Part shown: positions 14,951 through 63,391 of the stretch, piece by piece | How the letters are laid out: every line of letters begins with the position of its first letter | How positions within the stretch are numbered: position 1 is the first letter of the stretch | Position numbers and translations under genes: made by a program | Notes under the pieces: model-generated | The model's input: only the letters and a program-made list of their open reading frames with translations | Database searches by the model: none | Told to the model about the DNA's origin: nothing | NCBI GenBank assembly: GCA_049512415.1 | Contig: JBEKXD010000020.1 | Coordinates: forward strand, 732 to 64,731 | Origin: Polyangiaceae bacterium | GTDB taxonomy: Bacteria > Myxococcota_A > Polyangia > Polyangiales > Polyangiaceae | DNA: 64,000 nucleotides | Direction: 5' to 3'

Positions 14951-17900
14951 ATGCATGCTCGTACCGAGTCACTTCCGCTTCTCGCGGCCCTCGCTCTCAT
15001 TGCCGGGCTCGCAGCCGGTTGCGGGGGAGGGGGAGCGGCGCCCGCACGTGGCTCGGAATTCGGTGACGCGTCCTTCGCGGACTCGGCTGCCAGCGCCTTG
15101 GATGCTTATTCGCAGGACGAATGGCAGGGGCTGATCGCGCCACCCGATTCGGGGGGTAGCGACTCCGCGACTCCCGCTTGCGACGGGAGCTGTTCTTCCG
15201 GAGTGGACTCGGCTTCCGCCGGCTACTGCGGCGATGGCATCATCGAGGCCGGGGAGCAGTGCGACGATGGCAACTCGGTGCCGGGTGATGGCTGCTCGGG
15301 CACGTGCCAGATCGAGCCCGGATACACGTGCCCGATGCAGGGAAAGCCCTGCGTGCTCACGGTGACTCTGACGTGCGGCGATGGCAAGATCGAGGGGAGC
15401 GAGGAGTGCGACGATGGCAACCAGACCTCGGGCGACGGCTGTTCGTCGACCTGTCAGGTCGAACCTGGCTGGGCCTGCCCAACTCCGGGCCAACCGTGCG
15501 TCCGGATCTCGACCCTCGACGCGAGCGGGCCGACGTGCGGCGATGGCATAATCGAGTCGGGCGAGCAGTGCGACGACGGCAACACGGTCTCGGGCGACGG
15601 CTGTTCCAGCACGTGCCAGCTCGAGCCGGGCTACTACTGCCCCGCGCCTGGGCAGCTTTGCAAGCTCGAATGCGGCGACGGTGTTGTCGAGTCGGGCGAG
15701 CAGTGCGATCTCGGCGCGCAGAACGGCGTGACGGGGAGCGGTTGCACCTCGACGTGCAACATCGTCCCAGGGTACGCGTGCCCGCTGGCGGGCCATCCCT
15801 GTGTCAAGCTCGGCCAGCCTACGACGTGCGGAAACGGGGTGCTGGACCCCGGAGAGCAGTGCGATCTCGGATCTCAGAACGGAGTGGCCGGAAGCGGCTG
15901 CACGGCCAATTGCTCGATAGCGCTTGGATACTACTGCGATGCGGGGACCTCGTGTGCTCAGGCGCCGCCGAACACCTGCGGCAACGGAGTGCTGGACCCG
16001 GGCGAGCAGTGCGACCTCGGCTCTCAGAACGGAGTGGCTGGCAGCGGGTGCACTGCAACGTGCACGATTCTCGCCGGCTACTCTTGCTCCGACGCGGGCA
16101 CCTGCGTGCTAAACCAGCTCGACAAGTGCGGCAACGGCGTCCTCGATCCTGGTGAGCTGTGCGACGACGGAAACACCGTGCCGGGCGATGGCTGCTCGGG
16201 CACGTGCACGATTGAGCCAGGCTGGTCGTGTCCCGACGTGGGCCAGCCTTGCGAGCGCGTCTGGGTCTGCGGAAACGGGATTGTGGACCCCGGCGAGCAG
16301 TGCGACTTGGGGCTGCTCAACGAAGGCGATGCCGGGACGTCGACGAGTGGATGCACCTCTTCTTGCCAAGTGGCGACCGGCTACACGTGCACCAGCGCCT
16401 CGGCCGGCGGGGGCGGCGCTGACGCTGGGACGGTGGACGCGGCCGTGGTCGACGCGTCCGTGGTCGACGCGTCCGTCGGCGACGCGACGGTCGGCGATGC
16501 GACCGCAGCGGATGCTGCCGCGGCCGACGCGGCGGCGGTCGAAGCTGCCGTGGTCGATGCGGCCCCCGCCGGCACGACCGACGCGGGCAGCGTGTGCACC
16601 AAGATCAACCTGTGCGGCAACGGCGTGGTCGACGTTGCGGCCGGAGAGCAGTGCGACACCGGGCCTCTCAACGGAACCGGCGGCTGCACGACGTCCTGTA
16701 CGATCGTGTCGGGCTGGACCTGTCCGAGCGGAGGGCACTTCGCTTGCACCACCGTGTGCGGTGACGGGATCGTCGCCGGCTACGAACAGTGCGACTTCGG
16801 TTCGGCCAACGGCAGCACCGACGCCGGCGTGAGCGCGTGCACGACCGCGTGCACGATTCAGTCGGGGTATGCGTGCAGCAACAAAGGGCCGGCGACCAGC
16901 CAGGCCGATTGCCACGTCACCGTCTGCGGCGACGGAACACCGGAGGGCGCCGAAGAGTGCGACGACGGCAATCTCCGGCCATACGATGGGTGCTCGCCCT
17001 GGTGCAAGATCGAGCCGACGTGCGCCAAGGGCAGCTGCACCGCCGTCTGCGGAGATGGACAGGTGACTTCGCCGGAGGAGTGCGACGATGGCAACACGGT
17101 CTCGGGAGACGGGTGCAGCAACGTTTGCAAGATAGAGCCCGGGTGGACCTGCACGACCGTTGTCGAGCCGCCCGGCGCCTCGATCATCGTCCCCATTCTC
17201 TTCAGGGACATGCACTACTGCAACGCGGCGGACTGCGGCCAGCAGGGCGACGGGTACACGTCAGCCAACACGCTCCTAACACCGAACACGCCGCCGAACG
17301 GGCACCCGGATTTCAATCGAGACTCGTACGAACCCGGGACCACTCCGCGAACCGGACTGGTGGCCCAGCAGCTAGGCACCGACAACGAGCCGGTGTTCGC
17401 GTCGACCACGGGGGATGACCCGACCAGCCCGGCGCTGACCGGAGCCGTCCCCTTCTGCTGGTGGTACCACGATACCGGCTGCAGCGGGGCCGGCAGCACG
17501 AATCCGTACGCCATGGACGTCTGGCTCGATGCCGTCCAGAATCCGATGACCCTCCAGCTCACGCCCCAGGTCGCGGGCTCGACAGTATACGAGTTCAACA
17601 ACCAGGCGTTCTTCCCGCTCAACAACTTGGGCTGGGACAACCCGAGCGCCACGCTCAATCCTTACTGGTACAACGACCCGCAGACGTCCGCGGGCAAGGA
17701 CGGCGCGGGCAACGCGGTAGCCGGAGTCCAGAATTTCTCGTTCACGAGCGAGCTCCACTATCGCTTCACCTACCAGGCTATGTTGGCGGCCAGCGCCAAC
17801 CCGCCGGCTTTCACGTTTACCGGCGACGACGACGTCTGGGCGTTCGTGAACGGTCAACTGTTCATGGACCTCGGCGGCATGCACCCGGCCAAGTCGGGGT

Positions 17901-19351
17901 CGGTGACGCTCAACACGACCGAAGGCACCGCGTTGGGGCTCGTCGACCAGGGCATCTATTCGATCGATGTCTTCCAGGCCGAGCGGCACGTGACCCAGTC
18001 GACGTACCTGCTCACCATGCAGGATTTCATTCACCAGATCTCCCAGTGCACGGCGTCCTGCGGGGACGGTCTGCCCGCGGCGGGCAAGCAGTGCGACTTG
18101 GGCGCTGCGAACAATACGGGCTCCTACGGCGGGTGCACGAAGACGTGCACCCTGGCGGGCTACTGCGGCGACGGCATCGTCCAAAATCCGCCCGAGCAGT
18201 GCGACTTGGGCGCTGCCAACAACACGGGCGGCTACGGCGGGTGCAACGCCAACTGCACCCGCGGACCCTACTGCGGCGACGGCAGTGTCGAGCCGCCCGA
18301 GCAGTGCGACTACGGGACCGCGAACAACACGGGCGGCTACGGCGGATGCACCGCCAATTGCACGCTGGGGCCCTACTGCGGCGACGGCAAGATTCAGCCC
18401 CCGGAACAGTGCGACGATGGTACGGCGGGCAACACGGGCGGCTACGGGGGGTGCAACGCCAACTGCACGCTCGCGCCCTACTGCGGCGACGGAGTGATCG
18501 AGGGCACCGAACAGTGCGACGACGGGGTCAATAACGGAACCGTCTACAGCGACTGCACGACTCAGTGCCAGACCAAGTGCACGACATGCACGGTGACGGG
18601 ATTCTGCGGCGACGGCATCCTCCAGCCGCCCGAGCAGTGCGACTTGGGCACCGCGAACAACACCGGCGGATACGACGGCTGTAACCCGGACTGCACACTC
18701 GGCCAGTACTGCGGGGACGCCAAGGTCGAGACTCCGCCCGAGCAGTGCGACTTGGGCACCGCGAACAACACCGGCATCTACGGAGGGTGCGAGCCGAACT
18801 GCACGCTCGCGCCCTATTGTGGCGACGGGACCGTGCAGCCCCCGGAGCAGTGCGACGACGGGGCGGGCAACGTTCCGCCGACGGGTGCCTACGGCTACGG
18901 CCTTTGCACCACGAATTGCACGATTGCGCCGTTCTGCGGCGACGGGACCGTGCAGGCGCCTGAGCAGTGCGACGACGGCATCGCGAACGGCACGGCGGCG
19001 AGCAACTGCGACACGCAGTGCCGCACCAAGTGTGGCAACGGCATCGTCGACCCCGGCGAGCAGTGCGACTTCGGGACGGCGAACAACACGGGCGCCTACG
19101 GTGGGTGCAAGGCCGACTGCACGCTCGCGCCCTATTGCGGGGACGGGACCAAGCAGGATCCGCCCGAGCAGTGCGACAACGGCAAGAACAACCAGCCGGT
19201 GGCGACCGCCTACGGCGCCGGAGTGTGTACCGCCGCGTGCACGAACGCACCGTTCTGCGGCGACGGGATCGTGCAGTCTCAGTTCGGCGAGGTCTGCGAC
19301 AGCACGCCGAACTGCACGAGCACCTGTACGTTCAAGAGCGGCGTCAAGTAG
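14951..19351 (+). CDS. giant secreted lipoprotein: ~24 'Myxococcus cysteine-rich repeats' flanking a fibro-slime/PA14-like domain
   Basis: The ATG at 14951 gives [24 protein letters not shown] (lipobox). Repeats follow the pattern CGDG..[9 protein letters not shown]..(S/P)GDGCS..C..E.G(Y/W).C. The central part has [12 protein letters not shown]...GLV and [23 protein letters not shown], the fibro-slime signature. Confidence 0.85.
   Translation: [1466 protein letters not shown]
16433..16567 (+). repeat. 9 tandem copies of a 15-nt unit inside the giant protein, encoding (V/G/A)-D-A-(A/S/T)-(V/A) pentapeptides
   Basis: Read directly: gtggacgcggccgtg / gtcgacgcgtccgtg / gtcgacgcgtccgtc / ggcgacgcgacggtc / ggcgatgcgaccgca / gcggatgctgccgcg / gccgacgcggcggcg / gtcgaagctgccgtg / gtcgatgcggccccc. 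Confidence 0.85.
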
Positions 19352-34333: not shown

Positions 34334-35176
34334 TTATCGCGCGACATTCGGATTCACGTCGGCGTCGATCGCGGCTGCCATTTGCGCGAAATCCTGGACA
34401 TCCAGCGTCTCCCCTCGGGCGCTGAGGTCGACGCGAGCCTCGGCAGCCGCGCGGACGAGCGAATCGACGTCCCGGGCCAGGCCAGTCCAAGCGTTCCGAA
34501 GCGTCTTTCTCCGCGCCGAGAAAGCCCCGTGGACCAGCGCTCGAAACGTCGGCGTCTCGGCGGCGTGGGCCTGTTCGAGAGGAAGGAGCTCGACCACCGC
34601 GCTCGTCACCGCGGGGGGCGGGAAGAACGCCGCCGCGCCCACTCGCCGAATGCGCTTTACGTCGAAAACAGCCCTTACGAAGACGGTCAGCGCTCCGTAG
34701 TCCTTGGTCGCGGGCGACGCCCGCAGACGCTCGGCGACCTCGTCCTGGACCATGAACACCACACGCTCCAGGTGCTGCGCGCATTCCGTAGCGCGGCGCA
34801 GGAGCGGACCCGTGATAGCGTAAGGCAAGTTTCCGCAAAGAACGCGTGGCGACCGCTCGTCTCTTGGTCCCAAGAGACCTATCAAATCGACATTCTTGGC
34901 GTCCTCCTCGACCACACGCACGCACGGGACGGCTCCGAATTCGCGGACGAGCAAAGGGACGAGCTCTCGGTCGCGCTCGATCGCGCACAAAGACTGAGAA
35001 CGCTCGGCGAGCCACCGTGTGAGCGCACCCGTGCCCGCACCGATTTCAATGACGCGAGCCCGCCCCCATTCCCGCATGGGCACACAGGTTGCTGCGATCT
35101 CGCGCGCGACGGTTTCCGACACAAGGAAGTTCTGACCGAAGGTCTTCTTGGGTCGCAGCCCGGCATCGTTGAGCAC
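34334..35176 (-). CDS. rsmA: 16S rRNA (adenine1518/1519-N6)-dimethyltransferase
   Basis: KKTFGQNFL, the IEIGAGTGALT SAM-binding motif and a length of 280 aa fit KsgA/RsmA. It has a GTG start. Confidence 0.9.
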   Translation of the reverse strand: MLNDAGLRPKKTFGQNFLVSETVAREIAATCVPMREWGRARVIEIGAGTGALTRWLAERSQSLCAIERDRELVPLLVREFGAVPCVRVVEEDAKNVDLIGLLGPRDERSPRVLCGNLPYAITGPLLRRATECAQHLERVVFMVQDEVAERLRASPATKDYGALTVFVRAVFDVKRIRRVGAAAFFPPPAVTSAVVELLPLEQAHAAETPTFRALVHGAFSARRKTLRNAWTGLARDVDSLVRAAAEARVDLSARGETLDVQDFAQMAAAIDADVNPNVAR

Positions 35177-35300
35177 ACTACGCGGATCGCGGCGCTCGTG
35201 CGGGGGCCGCGAGCTTGGGGCGTCTCGCTCTTGGCCGGGTCTAATGGATTCCTCGATTCGGACGTTCTACGGGTGAAAGGTGCGCGGACGAGATTGACCT

Positions 35301-35316
35301 TGGCACCTTGATTGCT
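35301..35316 (+). promoter_or_regulatory. sigma-54 (-24/-12) promoter, exact consensus
   Basis: TGGCAC cttga TTGCT matches TGGCAC-N5-TTGCW exactly. It lies in a 225-nt divergent intergenic region, 86 nt upstream of the ATG at 35402. Confidence 0.7.
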
Positions 35317-35401
35317 ACCATCTTAGCTGGATCGTCGTGCGCCGCCCGCCGAATTCTCATTCGCATCATCCCTACTTGTCCCATGGATTGGGAGGTCGAT
35401 C

Positions 35402-35584
35402 ATGTTGCCTCCGTTCATCATCGAGCAGATTCGTCGAAGAGAAGAGCAAGAGCGTGCTCGCCATGAGCACCGTCAGCCCTTCCTCGAGGTCCCCGTCGAT
35501 GCCCCGGAGCAGCATGCGCCCAGGGAGCCAGAGGACGATGGGAACCGAGGCGTTGTGATCATAGATCTAGGTCGTCTCGACTGA
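35402..35584 (+). CDS. 60-aa charged small protein of unknown function
   Basis: The ATG is preceded by GGGAGG with a 6-nt spacer. The product is MLPPFIIEQIRRREEQERARHEHRQPFLEVPVDAPEQHAPREPEDDGNRGVVIIDLGRLD. Third-position G/C is weaker than in neighbouring genes, so coding status is uncertain. Confidence 0.45.
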   Translation: MLPPFIIEQIRRREEQERARHEHRQPFLEVPVDAPEQHAPREPEDDGNRGVVIIDLGRLD

Positions 35585-35662
35585 TTCAGTGGCACAGCGG
35601 GGCGGGGGAACGCTCCCACGCTCGAGTTCGCGAAACCGTGTCGAGATGTCGAGAAAGCCTGG

Positions 35663-35719
35663 GTATTTCGGCCGGAACCGAGCGAGGCTGGAGGTGAGGC
35701 GCGCGGAACCTGCTTCCTG
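35663..35719 (+). repeat. 57-nt conserved intergenic element, copy A (second copy at 63392..63448)
   Basis: It matches copy B at 47 of 57 positions in the same orientation: gtatttcggYcgRaaccgagcgagSctggWggYgagKcgcgcggaRccKRctYcctg. It lies 78 nt after the small-ORF stop and 98 nt before the ATG at 35818. Confidence 0.7.
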
Positions 35720-35817
35720 TAGGCATGCGCGCTCGCGGCCGGGATCGCGAAGGGATCGGCCGAAAGACACCGGCCTTCTCGACACTCGCGCTCGCGCTGG
35801 CTAGGCTCGCGGCCCTC

Positions 35818-37524
35818 ATGGCGCTATTTTTGCGCAAATCGCGCGCATTGTTCGGCGCTGCTGCTGTCTGGACACTGGCGTCCGGGTGCTACACCACCGG
35901 CGGGGGCGGAACCGATCCGCCCGCTCAGAGTTTGTATTATCCGGTGGGGCTCGCGGTGTCGCAGCCCGCAGGGCGGTGGCTCGTCGTCGTGAACTCGGAT
36001 TTCGACCTCCAGTACAGCGGGGGGACGCTCCAGACCTTCGACCTCGCAGGCATTCGGCAGGACGCGGTCTACACCATCGCCTACAGGACGAATCCTGCCG
36101 CAGTGAGTTGTTCCGCCACGCCTCCCACGGACGGCTGGCTCGGCCTGGCCTGCGCTCAACCCGCGGATGCGGCTCCCGGAGTCTATTGGGCGGATCCAAG
36201 CCAATATTGGAGGAGCACGCTCATCGTCGGTGCGTTCGCCACGGACCTGCTCGAGCTCTCGGTCCCCGGGTTGAGCCTTGACCCGATTCCGCTGTTCTCG
36301 CCAATCCGCGGAACGACCGCGGTGCTCTCTGCGACGCTCGATCCCGATCCCGATCCCAACGCCGGGGGGGGACTGCTCACGTGTGGCGACGGCAACGTAA
36401 GTCGCTGCGGGGCCGGCAGTTACGTGGGCAGCGATCCGAATGCGCTTTACGACACGCGCCAGGTCGTCTTGTCCGGAGAGCCGTTCGGCATTGCGCAGAC
36501 GCACGACGGAACCGCTTTCCTGGTCACGTCGGAGAGCGACACGACGACATCGGTGTTCGCGACCGACGAGCTGACCGACGTGGGCACCCAAAAGCTAGCG
36601 GACTCGGGCACCCCGATCCCGTCGCTCCAGTTCGTGCTGAGCGGCCTTCCGGCGGCCGGAACCGGGATTGCCGAGATCCCTCACGACCCGGGGACGGCGC
36701 CGACTTGTAGTCCTACGTCGGGCCCGTCATGCGTGCGCCCGGCCTTCCTGGAGACGAATCATAGTACGGCGCAGATCGACCTTCTGCGGTACTACTCCGA
36801 TGACGGGACGGCGTCCGACGGAGGCATTCAGAGCCCCGGTGGGCAGCGAGCGTTCTTGCAGCTCGAGGGAACCCTCGCGCTCACGGCGACGACCGGCAGC
36901 GACGAGCGAGGCATCGTCATCGACGATTCGCCGCGGGCGATCTGCCATGCCGCGGCTCAGGCTGCCGAGGTGGCTTCCGGTTGCGATGCCAACTGCGTGT
37001 CGAACGCGCAAACACAAGACTTTAACTGCGGCTTTCTCCCGGCGAACATGTACGTCGCAAGCCGTACGCCCCCCGCGCTCCTCCTCGGCCAGGTCGGCAA
37101 CCAGTACGACCCTGATGCGCTCTCCATCCAAGGCACAATTCCGCTGCCCGCGGGTCCCTCGAGGGTGTACCGAGCGCCGGTCATCGCTTCGGACGGCACG
37201 TACTCCTTGCGCATCTTCGTGACGTGCTTCGATTCGGACGTCGTCATCATCTATGACCCGGCGACACAACTCTGGGACACGGTCCACGTCGGGCAGGGAC
37301 CGTTTGCGATGACGTTCGACCCGTTTCCGACGACCTGTTGGGGCAAAACCCCTGCGGCGTGCTCGCAGCAGATGACGTACCCCTATCGGTTTGCCTACGT
37401 CGCGAACTTCACGCAATCGTTCCTCGAGGTCATCGACCTGGACAACTCACAACCCACCGCGCAATTGACGTACGAATCCGTCGTCTATGCGATCGGCCAG
37501 CCGACGGCTCCCAAAGGCCAATGA
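35818..37524 (+). CDS. lipoprotein, beta-propeller-like (YVTN/LVIVD-type strand motifs), unknown function
   Basis: MALFLRKSRALFGAAAVWTLASGC has a lipobox. Recurrent strand motifs are WLVVVNSD, AFLVTSE, VVIIYDPAT, FAYVANF and LEVIDLDN. The stop overlaps the next ATG (ATGA at 37521-37524). Confidence 0.75.
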   Translation: MALFLRKSRALFGAAAVWTLASGCYTTGGGGTDPPAQSLYYPVGLAVSQPAGRWLVVVNSDFDLQYSGGTLQTFDLAGIRQDAVYTIAYRTNPAAVSCSATPPTDGWLGLACAQPADAAPGVYWADPSQYWRSTLIVGAFATDLLELSVPGLSLDPIPLFSPIRGTTAVLSATLDPDPDPNAGGGLLTCGDGNVSRCGAGSYVGSDPNALYDTRQVVLSGEPFGIAQTHDGTAFLVTSESDTTTSVFATDELTDVGTQKLADSGTPIPSLQFVLSGLPAAGTGIAEIPHDPGTAPTCSPTSGPSCVRPAFLETNHSTAQIDLLRYYSDDGTASDGGIQSPGGQRAFLQLEGTLALTATTGSDERGIVIDDSPRAICHAAAQAAEVASGCDANCVSNAQTQDFNCGFLPANMYVASRTPPALLLGQVGNQYDPDALSIQGTIPLPAGPSRVYRAPVIASDGTYSLRIFVTCFDSDVVIIYDPATQLWDTVHVGQGPFAMTFDPFPTTCWGKTPAACSQQMTYPYRFAYVANFTQSFLEVIDLDNSQPTAQLTYESVVYAIGQPTAPKGQ

Positions 37525-40500
37525 CCATGAGAATCCGGATTTCCGGGGGGCTCGCAGTCGTTGCGGGCAGCATTGTCTTCATTTCGGCGACGGGCTGCTC
37601 GCAGACGGTCAACCCCGGCGCTCCCCGCACGATGGCGCAGCCGCAGAAACTGGACGTCGTCTGCATAAACGTCAACGGCGCGAACGACCTGCCCATCCTG
37701 CAGCCCGAGCCGGTCCCCGAGGACCTCTGCTCGCCGATCCCGGCGAACACGAGTTCCTCGGCGATGCAGTACCATCTCTTCGCGGTCGTCACTCAGCGCT
37801 TGCGCGGGGAGCTAGCCGTTATCGACGTCACGGCCGCCACAGTCGTCGATGAGGATAGGACCACACCCGGCATCAACTTCATCCCGGTAGGCATCCAGCC
37901 CACCGATGTGGTGGTCGCGCCCGATGGGCGGCTCACGTTCGTCTCGACCGCCGCCGACGGCATGGCCGGCATCGACGTGATCGACAACCGCCACCTTCTC
38001 GGTGACTGGACCGGCACGGGCCAATATCCCATTGGCCTGTCCGACGAGATGGGGTGCTCGCTGCCCGGGTTGCCGATGGCGCTGGCGACGGTGCCTGCCC
38101 CGGCGTCCGCGGATCCCAGCGCATCGACCTACCAGATCGTCGCGCTTCTTGCTGGCTCGGGCGCGTCCCCCGCAACGATCGTGACGATCGACCCGACCCC
38201 CTTCGAAACGGAGCTCACGGAGGACGGCGGTGCGGTGCCCGGAGCGGCGGTTCCAGGCGCGTTTCCTCCTTGTTCTCTGGTCGCGCAGTGGCCCATGACG
38301 TCGTGGACGACGACGGGTCCGCTGACTCCCAGTTCGACTTGGCCCGACGGCGTGCCCTACGCGGACGCCGGGGACATGAGTGACGCCGAACCGATCCTCG
38401 GGCCGACGTGTCCGGGCGGAGTTGCCGCGGATGCCGGTACCGATGCAGGGGCGTCCAGCGGCCAGGCGGCCCAGTCGCTCGCGATTGCGGCGAGCGGGAT
38501 TGTGAAGCCGCCGTCGATGGTGGTTCGCAATGACGACGTGCGCGTGGCGTACGTGGCCGACGGGACGCTTCCGGTCATCCACGTCATCGATCTCACCAAC
38601 CCGGCCAATCCGACCGAACTCCCTCCTCTCCAGGCGACGCGCGTCGCCACACTGACCGCTCCCGCGGAGGTCGTTCCGGTCGGCTGGCTGGCGCTCAGTC
38701 CCCCGACGCGGGACTACAAGCGGTACCTCTACGCGATCGACCAGTCTGACGGCTCCATCATGGTCTACGACGTGACCCAGCCGGACACGACGAAGGTGGA
38801 CGGCTCGATGCGGGTGCCGCTCTTGCGCCCGCATGCGGAGCTCAATCCACTCGTCCCGGCGGACCGCATTAAGTTCTCCGCGCCGGCGGCGTCGGTCGTC
38901 TTCGCGCAACACGACTGGCCGATCCTATCGCCGGCGAATGGTTCGGCCGACACTGTGCACGAATACACGGGTCTTCTGTGCAATCCCAACCCGAACGCAT
39001 ACGACGTCGCCAGCGGGGCAGTCACCGACTTGGGCGCGTACTACCGCTGGGATCAAACCAGCATCGCCCAGGCGCAGCAAGTGATCGCGCCGACATTTCC
39101 CTATCGACTGCGGGGGGTCTTCGGATTCGTCATGTTGTCGAACGGGGAGATGGTCGTCGTGGATGTCGACGACTGGGACGCGCCCTGTCGGCGCCCGGAC
39201 CCGATGTCGTCCGACCCGACCTCGGGGGATGGCGGTTATGGCGTGACCACCGGAATGACCGGACAGCTCGACCTGCCGGAGCCACCTCCAAGCGGTCCCA
39301 CCGACCTCGATCCCTACCACGCGCCGCTCGTCTACCAGGGGGCGGCCTCAGGCACGCCTTTGCCCGACACGACTGGCGTGACGCTCGAAGCGTTCTTCCC
39401 GATGTCCGCGCCTCATCGCGCGCGGTCGTCGGTGGTCCTGACCCCGAACCTCACCGGAGGTTCTCTGATTCCGACAGTCGTCGGTCAACCCCAGCTCTTC
39501 GACGTCAATGGAGCCCCTCTACCGACTTCGGGAGGTGGCGAGATAGGTCAGCACAATCCCCTGATCCTCGCGTCGCCGCTTTCTGCGGGATTCTACGACC
39601 CGACGTACGTGACAAATCCCTCTGAGCCGTACCCTGGCAACCGCCAGGCCCCTCAGCTACCTACCGTGACACCCGAGGCGCTGCCGCCGCCGAGCGTGCG
39701 CATCTCGTTCGACGACCCCACCGTGCACCAGACGCAGGATTGGACCGTTACGTACGAGGGGACGCTGCCGAACACGACGGGAATCTCAGCGGACCTCATT
39801 CTCAACGGCCCCGACTTTTCCACGATGACGTTGAGTGCGCCGGGCGCGGGATTGTGTGAACGAGGCATCGAAGACTGGGATCTCGGTCAAGCTCGTGCCG
39901 CTGAGTATCTTGCGGAGTTGGGGAGGCTGGGCATTCCCGCCGGCGCGAGCGACGCGGGTGCCGACGCGGGTGCCGATGCGGGCGACGCCGGAGGGGGGCC
40001 GTCCTTCGCGCTGTCCGAGATCGGGCAGTGGACGGCGGACTACGTCGAGATCACCGACGACTTGCTCCAGGTCACCGACCCGTATTGGGCCATGAACTCT
40101 CTGAACCCATCCGACGACGCGGGGCTCGACAACGGATGTTGGAACGACCCGGGCTTCGATGACGGTCGCCTCGCCGATACCGATCCTAACGCTCTCGCGA
40201 GCCCGCACGCGACCGATCGATATAATTACTGCTTTGCGACCTTCGACGCAGCGGTCAACGCCGATACGCACCTCGCGCGGGACTTCCCAATCCTCCAGGC
40301 GTTCGATGACTATCTTATCGTCGGGCGCTTCGGTTGGGGCCCGTCCACAGTGGCCCAGGAAGCCGGGGTTCCGGAGATCGCCGAGACGGCCTCCAACCGG
40401 GTCATCGTGGGCGCGACCGCGGACCCGAACAGCGCGCCCTTCCTCAAGCAACTGCGATGCTGCTTTCATCGCCAAGCAGCGTTCAAAGTCCGGACGGGTG

Positions 40501-40997
40501 GCGAATGGGTGACCGTCGGGAGCGAGAACATCGGGCTCTTGCACCACGTGGTGGCGGACCGGAACAACGGGGGCCGGTGCGTGCTGTCGTGCGATCCGCA
40601 GTACGCACTGATGAACGCGCGGGCGTTTGGCGTCCCGTGGCCCGATTCGTCCTGCGCCGCCCCGTCCAACTCGAACGGCGGAGCAGCCCCGCCGCCGGGC
40701 CTCGACCGCAACAGCCCCCTGGCGATGCGCAATCCGATGTTCTCGTTCGTCATGTGGGCCGGCTGTCCGTACGATCACAGCTACGATGCCCGCGACAACG
40801 TCTGGCGATTTTCGGTCTCCCCTGGCTTCTCTCCGCTGCAAGTGACGTTAGGACAGTACGCGACCTCGCCAGCGAGCCCGCAGGCGATGCGGTTCGTCGA
40901 TTCGCTGGGGCAGATCGCAGTCGTCGACGGGTCTCTCCAAGGAGTGGTTTTCTACGACCTCAATACGATCACGCCCGCGAGCGGTCCCTATTACTGA
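37521..40997 (+). CDS. 1158-aa lipoprotein, beta-propeller-like (LVIVD-type repeats), unknown function
   Basis: MTMRIRISGGLAVVAGSIVFISATGC has a lipobox. Motifs include ELAVIDVT, VVVAPDGRLTFVST, VIHVIDLTNPANP, GSIMVYDVTQPD, MVVVDVDDWD and GVVFYDLNT. It is translationally coupled to the upstream gene. Confidence 0.8.
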   Translation: MTMRIRISGGLAVVAGSIVFISATGCSQTVNPGAPRTMAQPQKLDVVCINVNGANDLPILQPEPVPEDLCSPIPANTSSSAMQYHLFAVVTQRLRGELAVIDVTAATVVDEDRTTPGINFIPVGIQPTDVVVAPDGRLTFVSTAADGMAGIDVIDNRHLLGDWTGTGQYPIGLSDEMGCSLPGLPMALATVPAPASADPSASTYQIVALLAGSGASPATIVTIDPTPFETELTEDGGAVPGAAVPGAFPPCSLVAQWPMTSWTTTGPLTPSSTWPDGVPYADAGDMSDAEPILGPTCPGGVAADAGTDAGASSGQAAQSLAIAASGIVKPPSMVVRNDDVRVAYVADGTLPVIHVIDLTNPANPTELPPLQATRVATLTAPAEVVPVGWLALSPPTRDYKRYLYAIDQSDGSIMVYDVTQPDTTKVDGSMRVPLLRPHAELNPLVPADRIKFSAPAASVVFAQHDWPILSPANGSADTVHEYTGLLCNPNPNAYDVASGAVTDLGAYYRWDQTSIAQAQQVIAPTFPYRLRGVFGFVMLSNGEMVVVDVDDWDAPCRRPDPMSSDPTSGDGGYGVTTGMTGQLDLPEPPPSGPTDLDPYHAPLVYQGAASGTPLPDTTGVTLEAFFPMSAPHRARSSVVLTPNLTGGSLIPTVVGQPQLFDVNGAPLPTSGGGEIGQHNPLILASPLSAGFYDPTYVTNPSEPYPGNRQAPQLPTVTPEALPPPSVRISFDDPTVHQTQDWTVTYEGTLPNTTGISADLILNGPDFSTMTLSAPGAGLCERGIEDWDLGQARAAEYLAELGRLGIPAGASDAGADAGADAGDAGGGPSFALSEIGQWTADYVEITDDLLQVTDPYWAMNSLNPSDDAGLDNGCWNDPGFDDGRLADTDPNALASPHATDRYNYCFATFDAAVNADTHLARDFPILQAFDDYLIVGRFGWGPSTVAQEAGVPEIAETASNRVIVGATADPNSAPFLKQLRCCFHRQAAFKVRTGGEWVTVGSENIGLLHHVVADRNNGGRCVLSCDPQYALMNARAFGVPWPDSSCAAPSNSNGGAAPPPGLDRNSPLAMRNPMFSFVMWAGCPYDHSYDARDNVWRFSVSPGFSPLQVTLGQYATSPASPQAMRFVDSLGQIAVVDGSLQGVVFYDLNTITPASGPYY

Positions 40998-41019: not shown

Positions 41020-43653
41020 ATGTCCAAGGCTTCCGAGACGCCGGTCATGCGTCAGTACCTCGCCGCGAAGTCCGCGCATCCCGATGCGCTGCTCTTCTTT
41101 CGCCTCGGCGACTTCTACGAGCTCTTCTTCGACGACGCCGTCGTAGCCGCCCGCGCGCTCGATCTCACCCTGACCGCCCGCAACAAGGGCGCCGAAGACG
41201 AGGTCCCCATGGCGGGCGTGCCGTACCACGCGGCGAGTGGTTACGTGCAAAAGCTGCTCGAACTGGGCCATCGTGTCGCTATCTGCGAGCAGATGGCTGA
41301 CCCGGCCAAGGTGAAAGGCATCGTTCCCCGAGAGGTCGTTCGCGTCGTGAGCCCGGGCGTTGCCTATGACGATGCCGGCCTCGATGCGCGCACCAACCAC
41401 TACCTCGCATCGGTCGAAAGGCCGGCGGAGGCGGGGCCGCTCGGGGTCGCGGCGCTCGACCTGTCGACCGGAGAGCTGCTCGCCTGCGAAGCCCCGGATG
41501 AGCCGACGGCCCTGGCGGAGCTGTTGCGCCTCGAGCCTCGCGAAGTGTTCCTGGGCCCGCTCGCGCACGGCCTCGCCAAGTCGCTCGCGTTGGCCCGTCC
41601 GGCGGTTGCCCTTCGGACGAGCGTGGTCATGGTCGACTCTCCGTCGGCGGTCTTGGACTCACAGCTCGGAGCCGGCGAAGCGTTTGCGTCCTGCCCCTCG
41701 GAAGCGGGGCGCCTCGCCGCCGCACGATGCGTGGTCGCCGCGCGAACGAGCGAAGCAGGCCGCTCTCTTCCCGTCGCTCGCCTCGTCTTCTACGACCTTG
41801 GGGGCACGCTTGCGCTCGACCAAGCGACCCAGGCCAATCTGGAACTCGTACGTGGGATCGACGGCGGCGAGCGGGGGTCGTTGCTCGCCATCCTCGATCT
41901 CACCGAGACCGCTCCCGGGGCGCGGCTTCTCCGGAGGCGCCTGCTCGCTCCTCTCGCACAGGTCGCGGAAATACGGCGCCGCCACGATGCGGTCGAGCTG
42001 TTCGTGACCGAGTCGGCGGTTCGGACCGAGGTGCGCTCCGCGCTGGCGAAGATAGGCGACATCGAACGCCTCGCCGTGAAGATCGCGGTCGCCCGTGCAG
42101 CGCCTCGCGACCTCGTCGCGCTGCGAAGGTCTCTGTCGTCCTTGCCGGCGCTCGGCGCCGCTCTTGCCCGATGTCCGGATGGCGCAGCGCGCAGTGCTCT
42201 CGGCGTCGCCGACGGGGACCCTTGGGTCGACGAGTGCACGGACGTTCGCGAGCGTCTCGAGCACGCCTTGGCGGACGATCCGCCGCCGCGCGCAACCGAC
42301 CCCGGAGTCATTCGAGACGCCTTCGACCGGGAGCTCGACGACGCTCGCGCGCTCATGAAGGGTGGCCAGAATCTGATCGTGGCGCTGGAGTCGCGGCTGC
42401 GCGATGTCTCCGGGATCGCCACCCTCAAGCTTCGCTACACGCGCGTTTTCGGCTGGTACATCGAAGTGACGCGCGCCCAACTCACGAAGGCTCCGGGCGA
42501 GTGGCGACGTAAGCAGACAGTGGCCGGTGGGGAGCGCTTCACCTGCGACGAGCTCGACGACCTCGCAGACAAGCTCGCGCACGCCGAGGAGAGAGCCAGC
42601 GTGCGGGAGTCGCAACTATACGCCCAGCTCGTGACCGAACTCGGGGTTTGCGTCGAGCGGATGCGCGCAGTGGCCGCGCGCCTGGCTGTGTGGGATGTGG
42701 CGGCGGGGCTCGCCGAGGTTGCGCATCGCGAGGACTGGGCCCGCCCGGTCGTGGACGACTCCGAGGATCTCGAGCTCGAGGATTGCCGCCACCCGGTGGT
42801 GGAGAAACTCGCTGCCCATGGACGCTTCGTGCCGAACGACGTGTCGCTCGGAGCTGGGACGGGGCGTCCGCGGCTCTGGCTGGTCACGGGGCCGAACATG
42901 GCGGGCAAGTCGACCTTGATGCGCCAGACTGCGCTGGCCGTGCTCCTGGCGCAAATGGGATCCTTCGTGCCAGCGCGTCGGGCGCGCCTGGGCGTTGTGG
43001 ACCGCGTGCTGACACGCGTCGGCGCGAGCGACAACCTCTCGCGCGGCGAGAGCACGTTCATGGTCGAGATGAAGGAGACCGCGAACGTGCTGCGGCGTGC
43101 CACCCGACGCTCCCTCGTCGTGCTCGACGAGATCGGACGCGGCACGAGCACGTACGACGGACTGGCGATCGCGTGGGCCGTGGCCGAGCACCTCCATGAC
43201 GTCGTAGGGTGCCGAGCGATGTTCGCGACGCACTATCACGAGCTCACCGAGCTCGCCGAATCGCGGGTCGGAACATGCGAAAACTGGAGCGTGAGCGCCC
43301 GTGAGCACAACGGGGATCTCGTCTTCCTCCACAAGCTGCAGCGGGGCGCGGCGTCGCGCAGCTACGGCGTGGCATGCGCCCGGCTCGCCGGTGTTCCCGA
43401 GCCTGTCGTCGCCCGCGCGCGGGGGCTGCTCGATCAGTTCGAACAGGGGGGGGGCCGATCGAGCCGGCCTTCGCCGGCCCACGCTCGTCCCGCGGACCCG
43501 AAGCCACAGCTCGAACTGTTTCACGTCGCTGCGTCGGGTCCGACGAATCATCCCGCGCTCGACACCCTCCGGGCGATCGACCTCGAGCGGGTCACGCCGC
43601 TCGATGCTTTTGCCCTCGTCGTCACGCTAAAGAAAATGGCCGCGGCCCTGTGA
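41020..43653 (+). CDS. mutS: DNA mismatch repair protein MutS
   Basis: PVMRQYLAAKSAHPDALLFFRLGDFYELFFDDA is the mismatch-binding N-terminus. It also has Walker A GPNMAGKST, then STFMVEM and DEIGRGTSTYDG. Confidence 0.95.
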   Translation: MSKASETPVMRQYLAAKSAHPDALLFFRLGDFYELFFDDAVVAARALDLTLTARNKGAEDEVPMAGVPYHAASGYVQKLLELGHRVAICEQMADPAKVKGIVPREVVRVVSPGVAYDDAGLDARTNHYLASVERPAEAGPLGVAALDLSTGELLACEAPDEPTALAELLRLEPREVFLGPLAHGLAKSLALARPAVALRTSVVMVDSPSAVLDSQLGAGEAFASCPSEAGRLAAARCVVAARTSEAGRSLPVARLVFYDLGGTLALDQATQANLELVRGIDGGERGSLLAILDLTETAPGARLLRRRLLAPLAQVAEIRRRHDAVELFVTESAVRTEVRSALAKIGDIERLAVKIAVARAAPRDLVALRRSLSSLPALGAALARCPDGAARSALGVADGDPWVDECTDVRERLEHALADDPPPRATDPGVIRDAFDRELDDARALMKGGQNLIVALESRLRDVSGIATLKLRYTRVFGWYIEVTRAQLTKAPGEWRRKQTVAGGERFTCDELDDLADKLAHAEERASVRESQLYAQLVTELGVCVERMRAVAARLAVWDVAAGLAEVAHREDWARPVVDDSEDLELEDCRHPVVEKLAAHGRFVPNDVSLGAGTGRPRLWLVTGPNMAGKSTLMRQTALAVLLAQMGSFVPARRARLGVVDRVLTRVGASDNLSRGESTFMVEMKETANVLRRATRRSLVVLDEIGRGTSTYDGLAIAWAVAEHLHDVVGCRAMFATHYHELTELAESRVGTCENWSVSAREHNGDLVFLHKLQRGAASRSYGVACARLAGVPEPVVARARGLLDQFEQGGGRSSRPSPAHARPADPKPQLELFHVAASGPTNHPALDTLRAIDLERVTPLDAFALVVTLKKMAAAL

Positions 43654-51564: not shown

Positions 51565-53715
51565 ATGAGGTTTCTGTCGAACGCGGGGTGGATCGCGGCT
51601 GGGCTTGTGGTCGGAGCCACAGGCTGCGTTGGGTATGCGTCGGTCGTCGCGGAGACCGACGATGCCATGACGACGGATGCGAAGTCATCGGGCGACGGTG
51701 CGCCCAGTGCTGACGCCACGAGTACGGACGGGAAGGCCGACGGCAATGCAGCAGATGGCATGATCGACGCCACATTCGATGGACGCACTGGAGCAGGCCA
51801 AGGCGACGGGGGTGAAAGCGAGGCTGGCTTGCCCGACGTGGGGCCGAATTCGCTGACGGACGTGGAAGCTGGCCCCGCGTCGACGTACCCGGACGGAGCG
51901 CTCCAGGACGTAACGACGACCGCGTGCAGCGCCGGGGCTCTGCGGTGTAACGGACTGCAAGCGCAAACGTGCGACCCCTCCGGGACATGGCAGGACACCG
52001 GGGCGACGTGTCCCTACGTTTGCGGTGCAGGGGCGTGCACGGGGACGTGTGTTCCAAGCTCTACCCAGTGCAGCGGTTTGCAGCCTCAGACGTGCGATGG
52101 TGCCGGAGCGTGGCAAAATCAGGGGGAAGCCTGCGAGTTTTCGTGCGGCGGAGGAGCCTGCTCGGGCTCGTGTACTCCGGGCGCGAGCCAGTGCAACGGT
52201 CCGCAACCTCAAGCGTGCGCCGACGGTGGCGTCTGGCAAGCAACCGGGGACAAGTGCAACTTCGTATGCGACGGCGGCGTGTGCGGGGGCGATTGCACGC
52301 CCACGGCGGCGCGGTGCAATGGGCTTCAACCGCAGAGGTGCGATGGGAACGGCACGTGGCAGAACGAGGGCACCGCGTGCACATCGTTTTGCAGCGGCGG
52401 CAGCTGCGTCGCGTGCACGGCGGGGGCGAGCCAGTGCAACGGGTTGCAGCCTGAGACCTGTGGCGACGCAGGTGCATGGGTCAGCTCAGGCGCGTCGTGT
52501 CAGTTCGTCTGCGACGGTGGCTCCTGCTCGGGTGCGTGCACCCCAACGTCGCTCCAGTGCGACCAGCTCCAGCCGCAAACGTGCAATCCAGCGGGTACGT
52601 GGGTCAATAAGGGCAACCCATGCCCTTATGTCTGCAACGGGGGGGCCTGCACTGGGGTCTGTACGCCGGATGCTCTCCAGTGCAATGGACTTCAGCCGCA
52701 GACGTGCACGAGCGCAGGTGCATGGGCAAACACCGGCGCCGCATGTCCATTCATCTGTTCCGCGGGCAAGTGCGCCGGAGTGTGTTCGCCGGACGCCGTC
52801 CAGTGCAACGGGCTCCAGCCCCAGACGTGCGATAGCCAGGGTGCGTGGACCAATAACGGCTCCGCGTGCCCCTACGTCTGCTCGGCGGGAGTGTGCTCAG
52901 GAGAGTGCATCCCCCGCGCGGTCCGGTGCAGCGGGCAGCAGCCGGAACTCTGCGTCAGCACCGGTACGTGGCAAACGAACGGGGCCCCTTGCAGCGGGTG
53001 TTACACCTGCTCGGATGCGACCGGCTCGTGCGCCGCAAGCGTTGGCAGCTCGTGCAACGACCAGAATGCCTGTACCCAGAACGACACGTGCCAAGGCAAT
53101 GGAACGTGCGCGGGCACCGCGGTCATATGCCAGCCGCTCGACAACTGCCATGTGGCGGGCACGTGCAGCACCTCGACAGGCTGCTCGAATCCGGTGGCGA
53201 CGGGCGTCAACTGTCCGACGAACGGCCCTGCCTGTCAGCAGTGGTATCCGGACTGCGACCAGGACGGCTTTGGAGACTCACAGAAAGCGCCCATCTGGTC
53301 ATGCTCGGCGCCTCTGCGCGTTCCCACCTGTTCGTCCGGTTTCAATGGCACCTATGTCAACAACAACAGAGATTGTTGTGATATCGATCCGGGCGCTAAC
53401 CCGGATCAAACGAACTACTCCATTGTCCCGGACGCGTGCGACGGCTCTTTCGATTGGAACTGCGATGGTGTCGAAACGCTCCAGAGCGACGGGCCGAGCG
53501 ACTGCGATCCGCCGAACCTTGCATGCCCTCAAGTGTCTGGCTGCCCCAACCCGACCCTGCCTCCCGACTGTGTCGACGGGATTGAAAGTGAAACGCCGGC
53601 CCTTTGCGGGCAGTATTGGCAGCTCTTCTACGCAACTTGCGCCCCAAGCCAAACGGGCACTGGTTGCGATCTGATTGCGGGCACCGCCAATGGGGGGACA
53701 CAAGCCTGCCTGTGA
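51565..53715 (+). CDS. secreted Cys-rich protein with ~8.5 tandem 41-aa six-cysteine repeats and a C-terminal Cys/Asp-rich region
   Basis: MRFLSNAGWIAAGLVVGATGC is a signal peptide with a lipobox-like end. The repeat pattern is C.P....C.GLQPQTC...G.W...G..C...C..G.C.G. between nt 51925 and 52995. The C-terminus has YPDCDQDGFGDS and DCCDIDPGANPDQ...CDG..DWNCDG motifs. Confidence 0.8.
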   Translation: MRFLSNAGWIAAGLVVGATGCVGYASVVAETDDAMTTDAKSSGDGAPSADATSTDGKADGNAADGMIDATFDGRTGAGQGDGGESEAGLPDVGPNSLTDVEAGPASTYPDGALQDVTTTACSAGALRCNGLQAQTCDPSGTWQDTGATCPYVCGAGACTGTCVPSSTQCSGLQPQTCDGAGAWQNQGEACEFSCGGGACSGSCTPGASQCNGPQPQACADGGVWQATGDKCNFVCDGGVCGGDCTPTAARCNGLQPQRCDGNGTWQNEGTACTSFCSGGSCVACTAGASQCNGLQPETCGDAGAWVSSGASCQFVCDGGSCSGACTPTSLQCDQLQPQTCNPAGTWVNKGNPCPYVCNGGACTGVCTPDALQCNGLQPQTCTSAGAWANTGAACPFICSAGKCAGVCSPDAVQCNGLQPQTCDSQGAWTNNGSACPYVCSAGVCSGECIPRAVRCSGQQPELCVSTGTWQTNGAPCSGCYTCSDATGSCAASVGSSCNDQNACTQNDTCQGNGTCAGTAVICQPLDNCHVAGTCSTSTGCSNPVATGVNCPTNGPACQQWYPDCDQDGFGDSQKAPIWSCSAPLRVPTCSSGFNGTYVNNNRDCCDIDPGANPDQTNYSIVPDACDGSFDWNCDGVETLQSDGPSDCDPPNLACPQVSGCPNPTLPPDCVDGIESETPALCGQYWQLFYATCAPSQTGTGCDLIAGTANGGTQACL

Positions 53716-53922: not shown

Positions 53923-54987
53923 ATGTCGTCGCGAACGCTCTCCGAGACATCTTTCGTCGTCATCGCACTCGCGCTCCCCCTCTTTGGATGCCAGAGCAGC
54001 AGCGACGACGACGCCAACGCGAATTCTTCGGACGCCAGCACCGGCAGCAGTTCGAGCTCGTCGAGCGGAGGTAGCAGTAGTTCGAGCTCGTCGAGCGGAG
54101 GCAGCAGCGGCTCGAGCTCGTCGAGCGGAGGCAGTGGCAGCAGCTCGAGCTCGTCAGGCGGCGCAACCTCGAGCAGCTCGAGCTCGTCAGGCGGCGCAAC
54201 CTCGAGCAGCTCGAGCTCGTCAGGCGGCGCGACCTCGAGCGGCTCGAGCTCGTCAAGCGGCGCAACCTCGAGCAGCTCGAGCTCGTCAGGTGGAGCAACC
54301 TCGAGCAGTTCGAGCTCGTCAGGCGGCGCGACCTCGAGTTCGTCGAGCGGCGGTCCGCTCGATGGAGGTTCTTCGGGCGAAGGCGGAACCGGGGGATGTC
54401 CGGGCGTGCCGATCACTCCCGACGCGACCGGCTACGTGGCTCCCGGCAGCAACTCTGTTGCAATCCACGGATCGTTCTTCATGTACAGCGATTGCAACGA
54501 CGGCATCAAACCGTGTTCGACGATCACCACGCCCACCTCCACGACCTCGTTTCCCAACGTGGGTGGCTTGATGTGTACGTCGGGCACCACGGTGACGGAG
54601 ACGGGGACGGCGGCGAACGCGTGGGGTGCGGGAATGGGTCTCGAGCTCAACGACGGCCCGCCCCAGCAGCCCTACGACGCGACGACGTATAACATCAAGG
54701 GATTCTGCTTCGTGCTGAGCGGCCCAACGCTTCCGAGCACGGGGCTCCGCGTGGCGTTCACAACGAAAGAGAACCAGGACTACGCGCCGTTCGAGACAGT
54801 TACGACCGCCGGGGTGACTACCGTACTGTTCTCGAACATCGCCCAGGGCTCGTGGGTATCGAAGGCCGATACGTTCACGTTCGACCCGACCGAGGTGATG
54901 TTGATGCAGTGGCAGGTTCCGGGAAACACCACAGCTCCGATACCGTGGGATTTCTGCGTCCAAGGGGTGACTGCCATCACGGAATGA
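53923..54987 (+). CDS. lipoprotein with long Ser/Gly tandem-repeat linker and C-terminal beta-sandwich-like (possible carbohydrate-binding) domain
   Basis: The lipobox is ALALPLFGC. About 115 aa are S/G/A/T only. The C-terminal ~200 aa are rich in beta-strand patterns and aromatic residues. A GGAAGGGA lies upstream of the ATG. Confidence 0.75.
   Translation: MSSRTLSETSFVVIALALPLFGCQSSSDDDANANSSDASTGSSSSSSSGGSSSSSSSSGGSSGSSSSSGGSGSSSSSSGGATSSSSSSSGGATSSSSSSSGGATSSGSSSSSGATSSSSSSSGGATSSSSSSSGGATSSSSSGGPLDGGSSGEGGTGGCPGVPITPDATGYVAPGSNSVAIHGSFFMYSDCNDGIKPCSTITTPTSTTSFPNVGGLMCTSGTTVTETGTAANAWGAGMGLELNDGPPQQPYDATTYNIKGFCFVLSGPTLPSTGLRVAFTTKENQDYAPFETVTTAGVTTVLFSNIAQGSWVSKADTFTFDPTEVMLMQWQVPGNTTAPIPWDFCVQGVTAITE
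54157..54354 (+). repeat. 6 tandem copies of a 33-nt unit (ggcggcgcaacctcgagcagctcgagctcgtca) encoding GGATSSSSSSS
   Basis: Copies start at 54157, 54190, 54223, 54256, 54289 and 54322 with few substitutions. They are preceded from ~54040 by related SGGSSSS-coding units. Confidence 0.9.
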
Positions 54988-63377: not shown

Positions 63378-63391
63378 GCTTGACGGTCGGT

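Follow-up and report, generated by a model that had tools for sequence, protein, structure and literature searches.

In this work we describe a gene cluster of a Polyangiaceae bacterium which is formed by a small open reading frame (ORF), two large lipoprotein genes, here called lipoA and lipoB, and the gene mutS, all of them on the plus strand. The window, that is, the whole stretch of DNA that was analysed, comprises 64,000 nucleotides (nt) of contig JBEKXD010000020.1 (assembly GCA_049512415.1) and has 66% G+C. The initial annotation of this DNA had joined a sigma-54 promoter, the small ORF, a 57-nt element and both lipoprotein genes into one candidate enhancer-dependent envelope module abutting mutS. 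The features that it listed, i.e. the sigma-54 motif, the ORF of 60 amino acids (aa), the 57-nt match, the two lipoprotein ORFs, their ATGA overlap and the gap of 22 nt before mutS, are all found where they had been placed, so the list itself was largely right. Nevertheless, their assembly into one enhancer-dependent unit is unsupported, and we favour a cluster with two transcription units. The features of the locus are the following:

34334-35176, minus strand: rsmA/ksgA, the upstream neighbour of the cluster (Pfam/NCBIfam)
35294-35321, plus strand: P1, putative sigma-70-type promoter of the small ORF (consensus scan and conservation)
35301-35316, plus strand: sigma-54 -24/-12 motif TGGCACCTTGATTGCT (TGGCAC-N5-TTGCT), lying within the spacer and extended -10 of P1
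35390-35395, plus strand: Shine-Dalgarno sequence GGGAGG of the small ORF, six nt 5' of its ATG
35402-35584, plus strand: small ORF, 60 aa (translation)
35652-35779, no strand assigned: palindromic dispersed repeat of the miniature inverted-repeat transposable element (MITE) or repetitive extragenic palindrome (REP) type, between the small ORF and P2
35779-35807, plus strand: P2, putative sigma-70-type promoter of lipoA (conserved hexamers)
35818-37524, plus strand: lipoA, 568 aa, ATG at 35818 (translation; lipobox LASGC)
37521-40997, plus strand: lipoB, 1158 aa, ATG at 37521 (translation; lipobox SATGC)
41020-43653, plus strand: mutS, coding for MutS1 (Pfam MutS I-V; NCBIfam mutS1 equivalog)
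63381-63448, plus strand: copy of the repeat with the left arm only (blastn and alignment)

The spacer between the small ORF and lipoA is 233 nt long, and the ATG of lipoB overlaps the TGA of lipoA (ATGA). The public annotation begins both lipoprotein genes elsewhere, lipoA at 35725 (599 aa) and lipoB at the alternative ATG 37527, which gives a protein of 1156 aa. LipoA and LipoB are 100% identical to "hypothetical" proteins of a Polyangiaceae metagenome-assembled genome (MAG).

Regarding the conservation of the cluster, relatives of LipoA turned up in 256 species when one genome per GTDB species was scanned. LipoB has over 400 homologues of full length and LipoA over 350, all of them unnamed or "hypothetical" and coming from Polyangiaceae/Myxococcota MAGs, and the names of the cluster members among the distant LipoB relatives are likewise "hypothetical" or missing. 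Our comparisons of orthologous loci rest on around 80 fetched loci, numbered with an L, and beyond this the denominator varies from feature to feature. Among the 80 fetched loci (Polyangiaceae/Labilithrix), the order small ORF-lipoA-lipoB-mutS is kept in every case in which the contig extends far enough. It is shared by the cultured Labilithrix luteola DSM 27648 (L047) and by a distant lineage whose LipoB has 909 aa and around 35% identity in the C-terminal region. In practically all the related genomes with DNA available, the small ORF is accompanied by the lipoprotein pair and by mutS, which answers the question that the initial annotation had raised. The gene cluster is lineage-specific and deeply conserved across Polyangiaceae/Labilitrichaceae. 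Furthermore, lipoA and lipoB are always adjacent and frequently share the ATGA overlap, which suggests that both proteins are produced together.

The start of lipoA is the point at which the cluster appears to divide. The putative promoter P2 consists in the window of a -35 hexamer TCGACA (35779-35784), a spacer of 17 nt and a -10 hexamer TAGGCT (35802-35807), followed after 10 nt by the ATG of lipoA. A TAnnnT hexamer, in most cases TAGGCT or TAGTCT, ends 8-13 nt before the lipoA ATG in 65 of the 69 loci compared, and TAGnnT is present there in 60 of the 69 as against 0.25% at random positions. Exactly 17 nt upstream of this -10, a -35-like T.GACA is found in 42 of the 69 loci, and the spacer between both hexamers is unconserved. 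A Shine-Dalgarno-like sequence precedes lipoA in none of these loci, whereas it precedes the small ORF in 61 out of 71. Moreover, two loci have a minus-strand gene inserted between the small ORF and lipoA, a gene of around 914 aa in L066 and a short-chain dehydrogenase gene in L032, and P2 is kept in both of them. Since a second conserved promoter, likewise putative, is found at the start of lipoA, the placement of all parts on one strand, a short distance apart, does not amount to a single transcription unit. Our conclusion from the comparison of the loci is that the small ORF and lipoA-lipoB should be regarded as separate transcription units. The enhancer-dependent control of the lipoproteins that had been proposed finds no support, because lipoA has its own conserved sigma-70-type promoter and no Shine-Dalgarno sequence, and opposite-strand genes separate it from the small ORF in L066 and L032. 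The initial annotation had itself named independent sigma-70 promoters for each gene as the result that would speak against it, and for lipoA the comparative evidence points to such a promoter.

The same region also bears on the start codon and the translation of lipoA. Most of the orthologues have an in-frame stop codon 4-5 codons 5' of the ATG, which settles the start of lipoA at 35818 (568 aa) and makes the public call of 599 aa too long. Given that the -10 of P2 lies around 10 nt from the ATG and that there is no ribosome-binding site, we infer that the lipoA-lipoB mRNA is probably leaderless or nearly so. Leaderless mRNAs are common in Actinobacteria and Deinococcus, and a literature search on such transcripts in Myxococcus gave nothing useful. 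In common with leaderless mRNAs, lipoA has a -10 hexamer around 7-10 nt from the start codon, lacks a Shine-Dalgarno sequence and starts with ATG. However, it differs from the typical case in that it is predicted from comparative sequence only, and in that the cistron codes for a secreted lipoprotein and is followed by coupled genes including mutS. Another start of this kind may be that of rsmA (35164-35200, minus strand), which may be at an ATG 12 nt after the listed GTG, where a TAGTGT ends 8 nt upstream. If the start of rsmA is that ATG, leaderless-type starts close to a -10 may be common in this genome.

At the other end of the cluster, mutS starts 22 nt past the stop codon of lipoB and has no Shine-Dalgarno sequence. 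The gap between lipoB and mutS is 40 nt or shorter in 44 of 59 loci (median around 14 nt), and a Shine-Dalgarno-like sequence is present in only 9 of those 44. No conserved promoter was found in the lipoB-mutS junction, and the TACGCA present there in the window is not conserved. As the gap is short, with neither a ribosome-binding site nor a conserved promoter in the junction, mutS is probably co-transcribed with lipoB, and in this genome it would most likely be the distal gene of the P2 transcript. In several species (L001, L002, L004 and L016) a gene for an inward-rectifier-type K+ channel of around 290 aa (IRK/Ion_trans_2) lies on the opposite strand between lipoB and mutS. Where such a gene intervenes, mutS has a TAGACC-17-TAnnnn-8/10-ATG of its own in front of it, an arrangement resembling a leaderless promoter.

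Regarding the promoter of the small ORF, P1 is composed of the -35 hexamer TTGACC (35294-35299), a 16-nt spacer, the extended -10 TG (35313-35314) and the -10 hexamer TACCAT (35316-35321), with a predicted transcription start around 35327. The consensus scan called it independently at 35294-35321, and P1 is also present in the distant locus L087. When the upstream regions were aligned, 69 of 71 loci showed the pattern CTTGACC-N12-TTGCTAnnTT in one and the same position, and in 44 of them the spacer is unconserved. The sigma-54 motif TGGCACCTTGATTGCT lies inside this promoter. It lies 86 nt upstream of the ATG of the small ORF, its GG and GC are exactly 10 nt apart, and its TTGC, universal among the loci, doubles as the extended -10 of the sigma-70 promoter. 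There is a single match to TGGCAC-N5-TTGC in the 64 kb, where 0.14 would be expected; one or more such matches were obtained in 12% of shuffles.

TGGCA[CT]-N5-TTGC is invariant at the orthologous position in 25-29 loci (29 of 75, around 40% of the species) and absent from 44-46 others, its carriers belonging to the clade of the window and to several further deep branches. In the loci without TGGCAC, that of Labilithrix luteola DSM 27648 among them, the spacer is unconserved and the -24 GG is missing, whereas the sigma-70 elements are kept; one-mismatch relics (CGGCAC, TGGAAC) occur in sister lineages. Among the loci with TGGCAY, the preceding base, the N5 and the downstream sequence all vary, and the identity of LipoA between species is only 36-43%. 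Because the motif is invariant while the bases around it vary at such identity, we take TGGCAY to be under selection. The exact sigma-54 site of the initial annotation is present at 35301-35316 as a motif, but it sits inside a far more widely conserved sigma-70-type promoter. The simplest reading is that P1 would be a dual promoter, with sites for sigma-70 and for sigma-54 that overlap and nearly the same start around 35327, and TGGCAC at most modulates the small ORF.

A similar arrangement has been described for qrr2 of Vibrio parahaemolyticus, where sigma-54 and sigma-70 promoters overlap and the use of the latter is repressed by sigma-54 (Tague et al., bioRxiv 10.1101/2021.07.01.450815). 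As in qrr2, a small gene has upstream of it, here in P1, the -35 and -10 of a sigma-70 promoter superimposed on a canonical -24/-12 element of sigma-54. However, qrr2 codes for a small RNA and its promoters were tested, whereas the product of P1 would be a small protein, the organism is a myxobacterium and P1 is predicted here from sequence comparison; furthermore, the sigma-70 elements of P1 are universal and its sigma-54 element is clade-restricted. Between rsmA and P1 there is also a 47-nt block, GGGTCTAATGGATTCCTCGATTCGGACGTTCTACGGGTGAAAGGT (35238-35283), which only the three closest relatives (L083, L084 and L085) share almost unchanged, although its flanks have diverged. P1 could have here a site for an activator or another regulator, or the block could be the promoter region of rsmA.

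The small ORF is a real gene. It was found in 71 of 83 loci, most of the others being without upstream DNA, and it has 1117 homologues, none of them named. Its product is 53-63 aa long across the loci, with an invariant N-terminus MLPPFIIEQIR[RK]RE, a variable, Pro-rich and acidic middle and the C-terminus RGV[IV]I[ILV][DE]L. The protein lacks a signal peptide, and it matched nothing in Pfam, NCBIfam or PADLOC. The strong ribosome-binding site that had been noted for it is confirmed as the GGGAGG six nt before the ATG. Codon 3 is CCT in 56 of 70 loci although the G+C content at third codon positions (GC3) is around 80%. In the window the CCUCC of codons 3-4 (35408-35412) can pair with the Shine-Dalgarno sequence (35390-35395), and this sequence pairs with codons 3-4 in the minimum-free-energy fold of 47 of 69 loci (about -8 to -10 kcal/mol). 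The pairing may form a translation-control hairpin around the start codon.

Both large proteins have a signal peptide, ending in ...WTLASGC in LipoA and in ...ISATGC in LipoB. The lipidation cysteine is invariant in 63 sequences of LipoA (Cys24) and conserved in at least 90% of those of LipoB (Cys26). In addition, both proteins contain many invariant cysteines; those of LipoA include Cys98, Cys112, Cys189, Cys197, Cys376 and Cys404, which are invariant or nearly so. On the basis of the signal peptides, the lipidation cysteine and these other cysteines, LipoA and LipoB are expected to be Sec-exported, acylated and disulfide-bonded. Among the invariant motifs of LipoB are DVDDWDAPCRRPDPM and RCCFH, and it also has invariant acidic clusters and His residues. 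These invariant Cys, acidic and His features would fit proteins of an oxidising compartment, possibly metal- or Ca2+-binding.

The AlphaFold2 model of LipoA, with a predicted local distance difference test (pLDDT) of 86 and a predicted template modelling score (pTM) of 0.88, is a 7-bladed YVTN-type beta-propeller with Cys-containing insertions. Its Foldseek matches include 1l0q_A (E 3e-10), an archaeal YVTN surface-layer propeller, as well as lactonase-like propellers. Some sources label the LipoA orthologues YncE-like, and YncE is not among the top 50 fold matches. LipoB has an N-terminal YVTN-type propeller, an internal Cys-rich region at aa ~700-1118 (nt 39618-40874) and C-terminal blade-like strands. 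The Foldseek matches of its model in PDB and BFVD are propellers only, with 1l0q_A matching the N-terminal half (E 1e-5) and nothing matching the C-terminal region in the search with the full model.

PDB sequence-profile searches of LipoA and LipoB returned only 1l0q_A (E 6e-7 and 5e-5), no Pfam family was matched at E <= 1, and no NCBIfam or PADLOC model was matched above threshold. No Pfam family, the LVIVD model included, is matched by LipoB aa 1-699 and 700-1118 at E <= 10 or by any of 63 LipoA orthologues; for TIGR02276, LipoA scored 19.1 bits with a cutoff of 27.85 and LipoB had no match. The propeller strand motifs that the initial annotation had quoted are present in the translations and the models are beta-propellers. 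We also agree that the lipoproteins match no characterised family (Pfam, NCBIfam, PADLOC, PDB sequence profiles), only the generic YVTN propeller fold being recovered.

The internal region of LipoB, of around 420 aa, turned up in only 235 proteins out of 1.84 billion representatives. In the 150 of these that were listed, it occupies one and the same C-terminal place in the near-full-length proteins, the shorter ones having the look of fragments, and no relatives of the region were detected outside the LipoB family in Pfam or PDB. Both proteins resemble the known YVTN propellers (1L0Q; COG3391/YncE-like; the lactonase-like 4QRJ, 3SCY and 1RI6) in their fold, which for LipoB holds for the N-terminal half, and in being extracytoplasmic or surface proteins. 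However, they differ from these by an identity of 9-13%, large Cys-containing insertions, lipid anchors and the family-specific region of LipoB. LipoA and LipoB are further envelope beta-propeller proteins, a familiar class, with one family-specific domain.

The 57-nt element between the small ORF and lipoA is a different matter. The segment 35663-35719 matches 63392-63448 with 82% identity over 57 nt (blastn, E 7e-11), and it is the left arm of a palindromic dispersed repeat of ~120-130 nt, which in this locus spans 35652-35779 (~128 nt). The inverted arms, 35647-35674 and 35757-35784, are 28 nt long and 86% complementary, the hairpin 35647-35784 has a dG of -85.3 kcal/mol (z -7.4), and the right end of the repeat adjoins the -35 of P2. 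None of the 82 orthologous loci contains the repeat; nor do the closest relatives (LipoA identity 80% and 65%), compared with which it is an insertion of around 120 nt. In peat and soil metagenome contigs (loci L089-L168) a 24-nt core pattern was found in at least 119 stretches, dozens of them from the sample series Ga0182030. The copies share the inverted termini AGAAGGTCGGTGTATTTCGG...CCGAAAGACACCGGCCTTCT, with the consensus AGAAGGTCGGTGTATTTCGGTCGAAACCGAGCGAG...GGGATCGCGAAGGGATCGACCGAAAGACACCGGCCTTCT. Among the matches listed, 87 of 104 copies are complete at around 120 nt, the full copies having a median minimum free energy of -82 kcal/mol, and 121 of 125 lie outside long open frames, the other 4 being inside. 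The copy at 63381-63448 consists of the left arm only, and the right-arm pattern was found in the window only at 35743-35768. Downstream of this truncated copy an ORF starts at 63485, whose N-terminus we take, from reading the translation, to be FabI-like.

REP/BIME, ERIC and the Correia elements of Neisseria are short palindromic dispersed repeats or MITE-like elements. The present repeat resembles them in having inverted arms that form one long hairpin, many copies that are almost always intergenic, full and truncated forms, and presence or absence between close relatives. However, its sequence is unrelated to any Rfam family, with no match either at E <= 1 or at the gathering score, and neither a target-site duplication nor a cognate transposase was identified, no search aimed at them having been made. 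This MITE/REP-like dispersed element is not part of the module, and the family appears to be new and restricted to the peat/soil metagenome contigs of this lineage. The conserved RNA-like element of the initial annotation is a dispersed palindromic repeat inserted in this genome only. The reading of the 57-nt element as an RNA was tried as well: pieces of 57-71 nt folded on either strand had z >= -0.24, the 57-nt piece by itself being no better than shuffles, and this reading was rejected in view of the full palindrome and the copy number.

As a whole, we think that the locus is reasonably well explained by two transcription units with two sigma-70-type promoters, a sigma-54 site overlaid on P1, a leaderless lipoA-lipoB-mutS mRNA and an unrelated repeat. 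The first unit would be a monocistronic gene for a cytoplasmic protein of 53-63 aa, driven by the strong sigma-70-type P1 (TTGACC, 16 nt, TG-n-TAnnTT). At this promoter the sigma-54 holoenzyme might either add activator-dependent expression or occlude sigma-70, which would make it a dual or a competing promoter. The second unit would begin at P2 and produce a leaderless mRNA for lipoA, the translationally coupled lipoB and, most likely, mutS. Our best guess is that LipoA and LipoB would act as a pair, forming an envelope-anchored platform, ligand-binding or Ca2+/metal-dependent, that would be expressed constitutively with mutS. The repeat, a recent insertion, might insulate the first unit from the second, if it is active at all.

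Several observations weigh against parts of this account. P1, P2 and the leaderless start are deduced from the conservation of motifs, and the search for intrinsic terminators gave none in the stretch from the small ORF to lipoA, so P1 could read through into lipoA here. Regarding the use of sigma-54, the TGGCAC state requires at least 5 changes on the neighbour-joining tree, inspection of 28 TGGCAC-bearing upstream regions gave no shared upstream activator site, and there is no Sigma54_activat protein among the scanned ORFs of the window. As for the proteins, position -1 of the lipobox is occupied by a non-canonical D or N in some of the LipoA orthologues, and the LipoB model is only of moderate quality (pLDDT 73, pTM 0.77) and includes long stretches of low confidence. 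When the LipoA profile was aligned with that of LipoB (hhalign), no relation was detectable. No catalytic or pathway signature could be attached to either protein, nor anything that indicates a ligand or a reaction.

The other explanations of the promoters have to be weighed against these. In a single activator-dependent operon, sigma-54 would transcribe from 35301 through the small ORF and the RNA element into both lipoprotein genes. An exact TGGCAC-N5-TTGC does face the cluster and is conserved in 25-29 related loci, all the genes are on one strand, and no intrinsic terminator was detected after the small ORF. Nevertheless, we consider such an operon very unlikely, since P2 stands before lipoA in 65 of 69 loci and a Shine-Dalgarno sequence in none, opposite-strand genes split the small ORF from lipoA in L066 and L032, most species lack the -24 GG and yet have the sigma-70 elements, and the -85 kcal/mol hairpin of the genome-specific repeat would more likely impede read-through. 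It is even harder to believe that the block TCGACA-17-TAGGCT is a signal for RNA processing or translation in a longer P1 transcript. The promoter reading of this block does rest on its sequence, the block is always beside the start codon, and its TAG is an in-frame stop 4-5 codons upstream in many orthologues; but two hexamers at a fixed distance of 17 nt with an unconserved spacer are the signature of a promoter, the block persists where a convergent or opposite-strand gene isolates the small ORF, and a similar TAGACC-17-TAnnnn-8/10-ATG appears before mutS when this is detached from lipoB. An explanation that deserves more weight, although we still find it unlikely, is that P1 is purely a sigma-70 promoter, TGGCAC being either an ancestral sequence that has been kept or a half-site of a clade-specific DNA-binding regulator (TGGCA-N7-TGCTA is an imperfect palindrome). 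In its favour, TGGCAC is patchy where the sigma-70 elements are universal, no shared activator site or nearby activator gene was found, and a lone TGGCAC-N5-TTGC in the window is not significant given the 12% of shuffles. Against it, six bases are invariant in at least 25 loci with randomised neighbours at 36-43% LipoA identity, which argues for selection, and the spacing to the GC is exactly that of sigma-54 every time. Moreover, Myxococcota rely heavily on sigma-54 and its activators.

Regarding the function of the proteins, instead of binding scaffolds LipoA and LipoB could be enzymes acting on an extracellular substrate, such as lactonase-, phytase- or lyase-like propeller hydrolases. This is a possibility that we regard as rather doubtful, though a serious one. 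Their best fold matches include 6-phosphogluconolactonase-like propellers and a beta-propeller phytase of Bacillus, and LipoB has its invariant acidic clusters and His; however, the identity to those enzymes is 9-13%, no threshold of a curated family is reached, and the propeller fold is functionally promiscuous. Finally, one may ask whether the small protein, the lipoproteins and mutS make one functional system, either a YncE-like platform of the periplasm or the surface for DNA binding and uptake, whose output would be policed by MutS, or a route by which an envelope or sigma-54 signal through the small protein would set the expression of mismatch repair and hence the rate of mutation or recombination. 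The gene order kept down to around 35% LipoA identity and the apparent dependence of mutS on the lipoprotein promoter are compatible with such a system, to which we give the least credence of all.

On the upstream side of the cluster, the ancestral neighbour is a divergent DUF4350-MoxR(AAA+)-DUF58 operon followed by rsmA (L001, L002, L087 and most of the GTDB loci). In the window and its closest relatives rsmA directly adjoins the cluster and this operon is absent beside it, and for that reason we dropped it as a functional partner. Beyond rsmA, the window has genes with an Lcl_C domain, a Ser/Thr kinase and a PEGA domain.

Elsewhere in the window, two adjacent paralogues of around 800 aa (9651-12029 and 12098-14569, minus strand) match the PD40 beta-propeller repeat. 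They share 75-81% DNA identity over several stretches of 170-300 nt placed around 2.5 kb apart, and the pair looks like a tandem gene duplication. The stretch 14843-19351 codes for a protein of 1502 aa made of many Cys-rich DUF4215 repeats (CGDG...EQCD), the source of most of the direct-repeat families of the window. Two tandem arrays of the coding type lie at 51913-52954 and 54020-54350, one with nine units of 123 nt (Cys-rich) and the other with units of 33 nt (Ser/Gly-rich, of low complexity). ARAGORN called a tRNA-Pro(agg) of 92 nt at 1146-1237, inside an ORF of high GC3 (95-1429); it is unconfirmed by Rfam and probably a false positive.

The analysis reveals no new kind of system, and its value lies mainly in annotation and in the generation of hypotheses. 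If the account that we favour is true, it would define a domain (LipoB aa ~700-1118) and a new and abundant family of palindromic repeats. In a whole family of soil and peat myxobacteria, the principal mismatch-repair gene would then be expressed on a leaderless mRNA, from a promoter that belongs to two uncharacterised lipoproteins of the envelope. These bacteria would also keep next door an unusually invariant protein of 55-60 aa, with a promoter that could be read by sigma-70 and, in some lineages, by sigma-54 too. The cultured Labilithrix luteola DSM 27648 would then offer genetic targets for the leaderless expression of secreted proteins and for dual-sigma promoters in Myxococcota.

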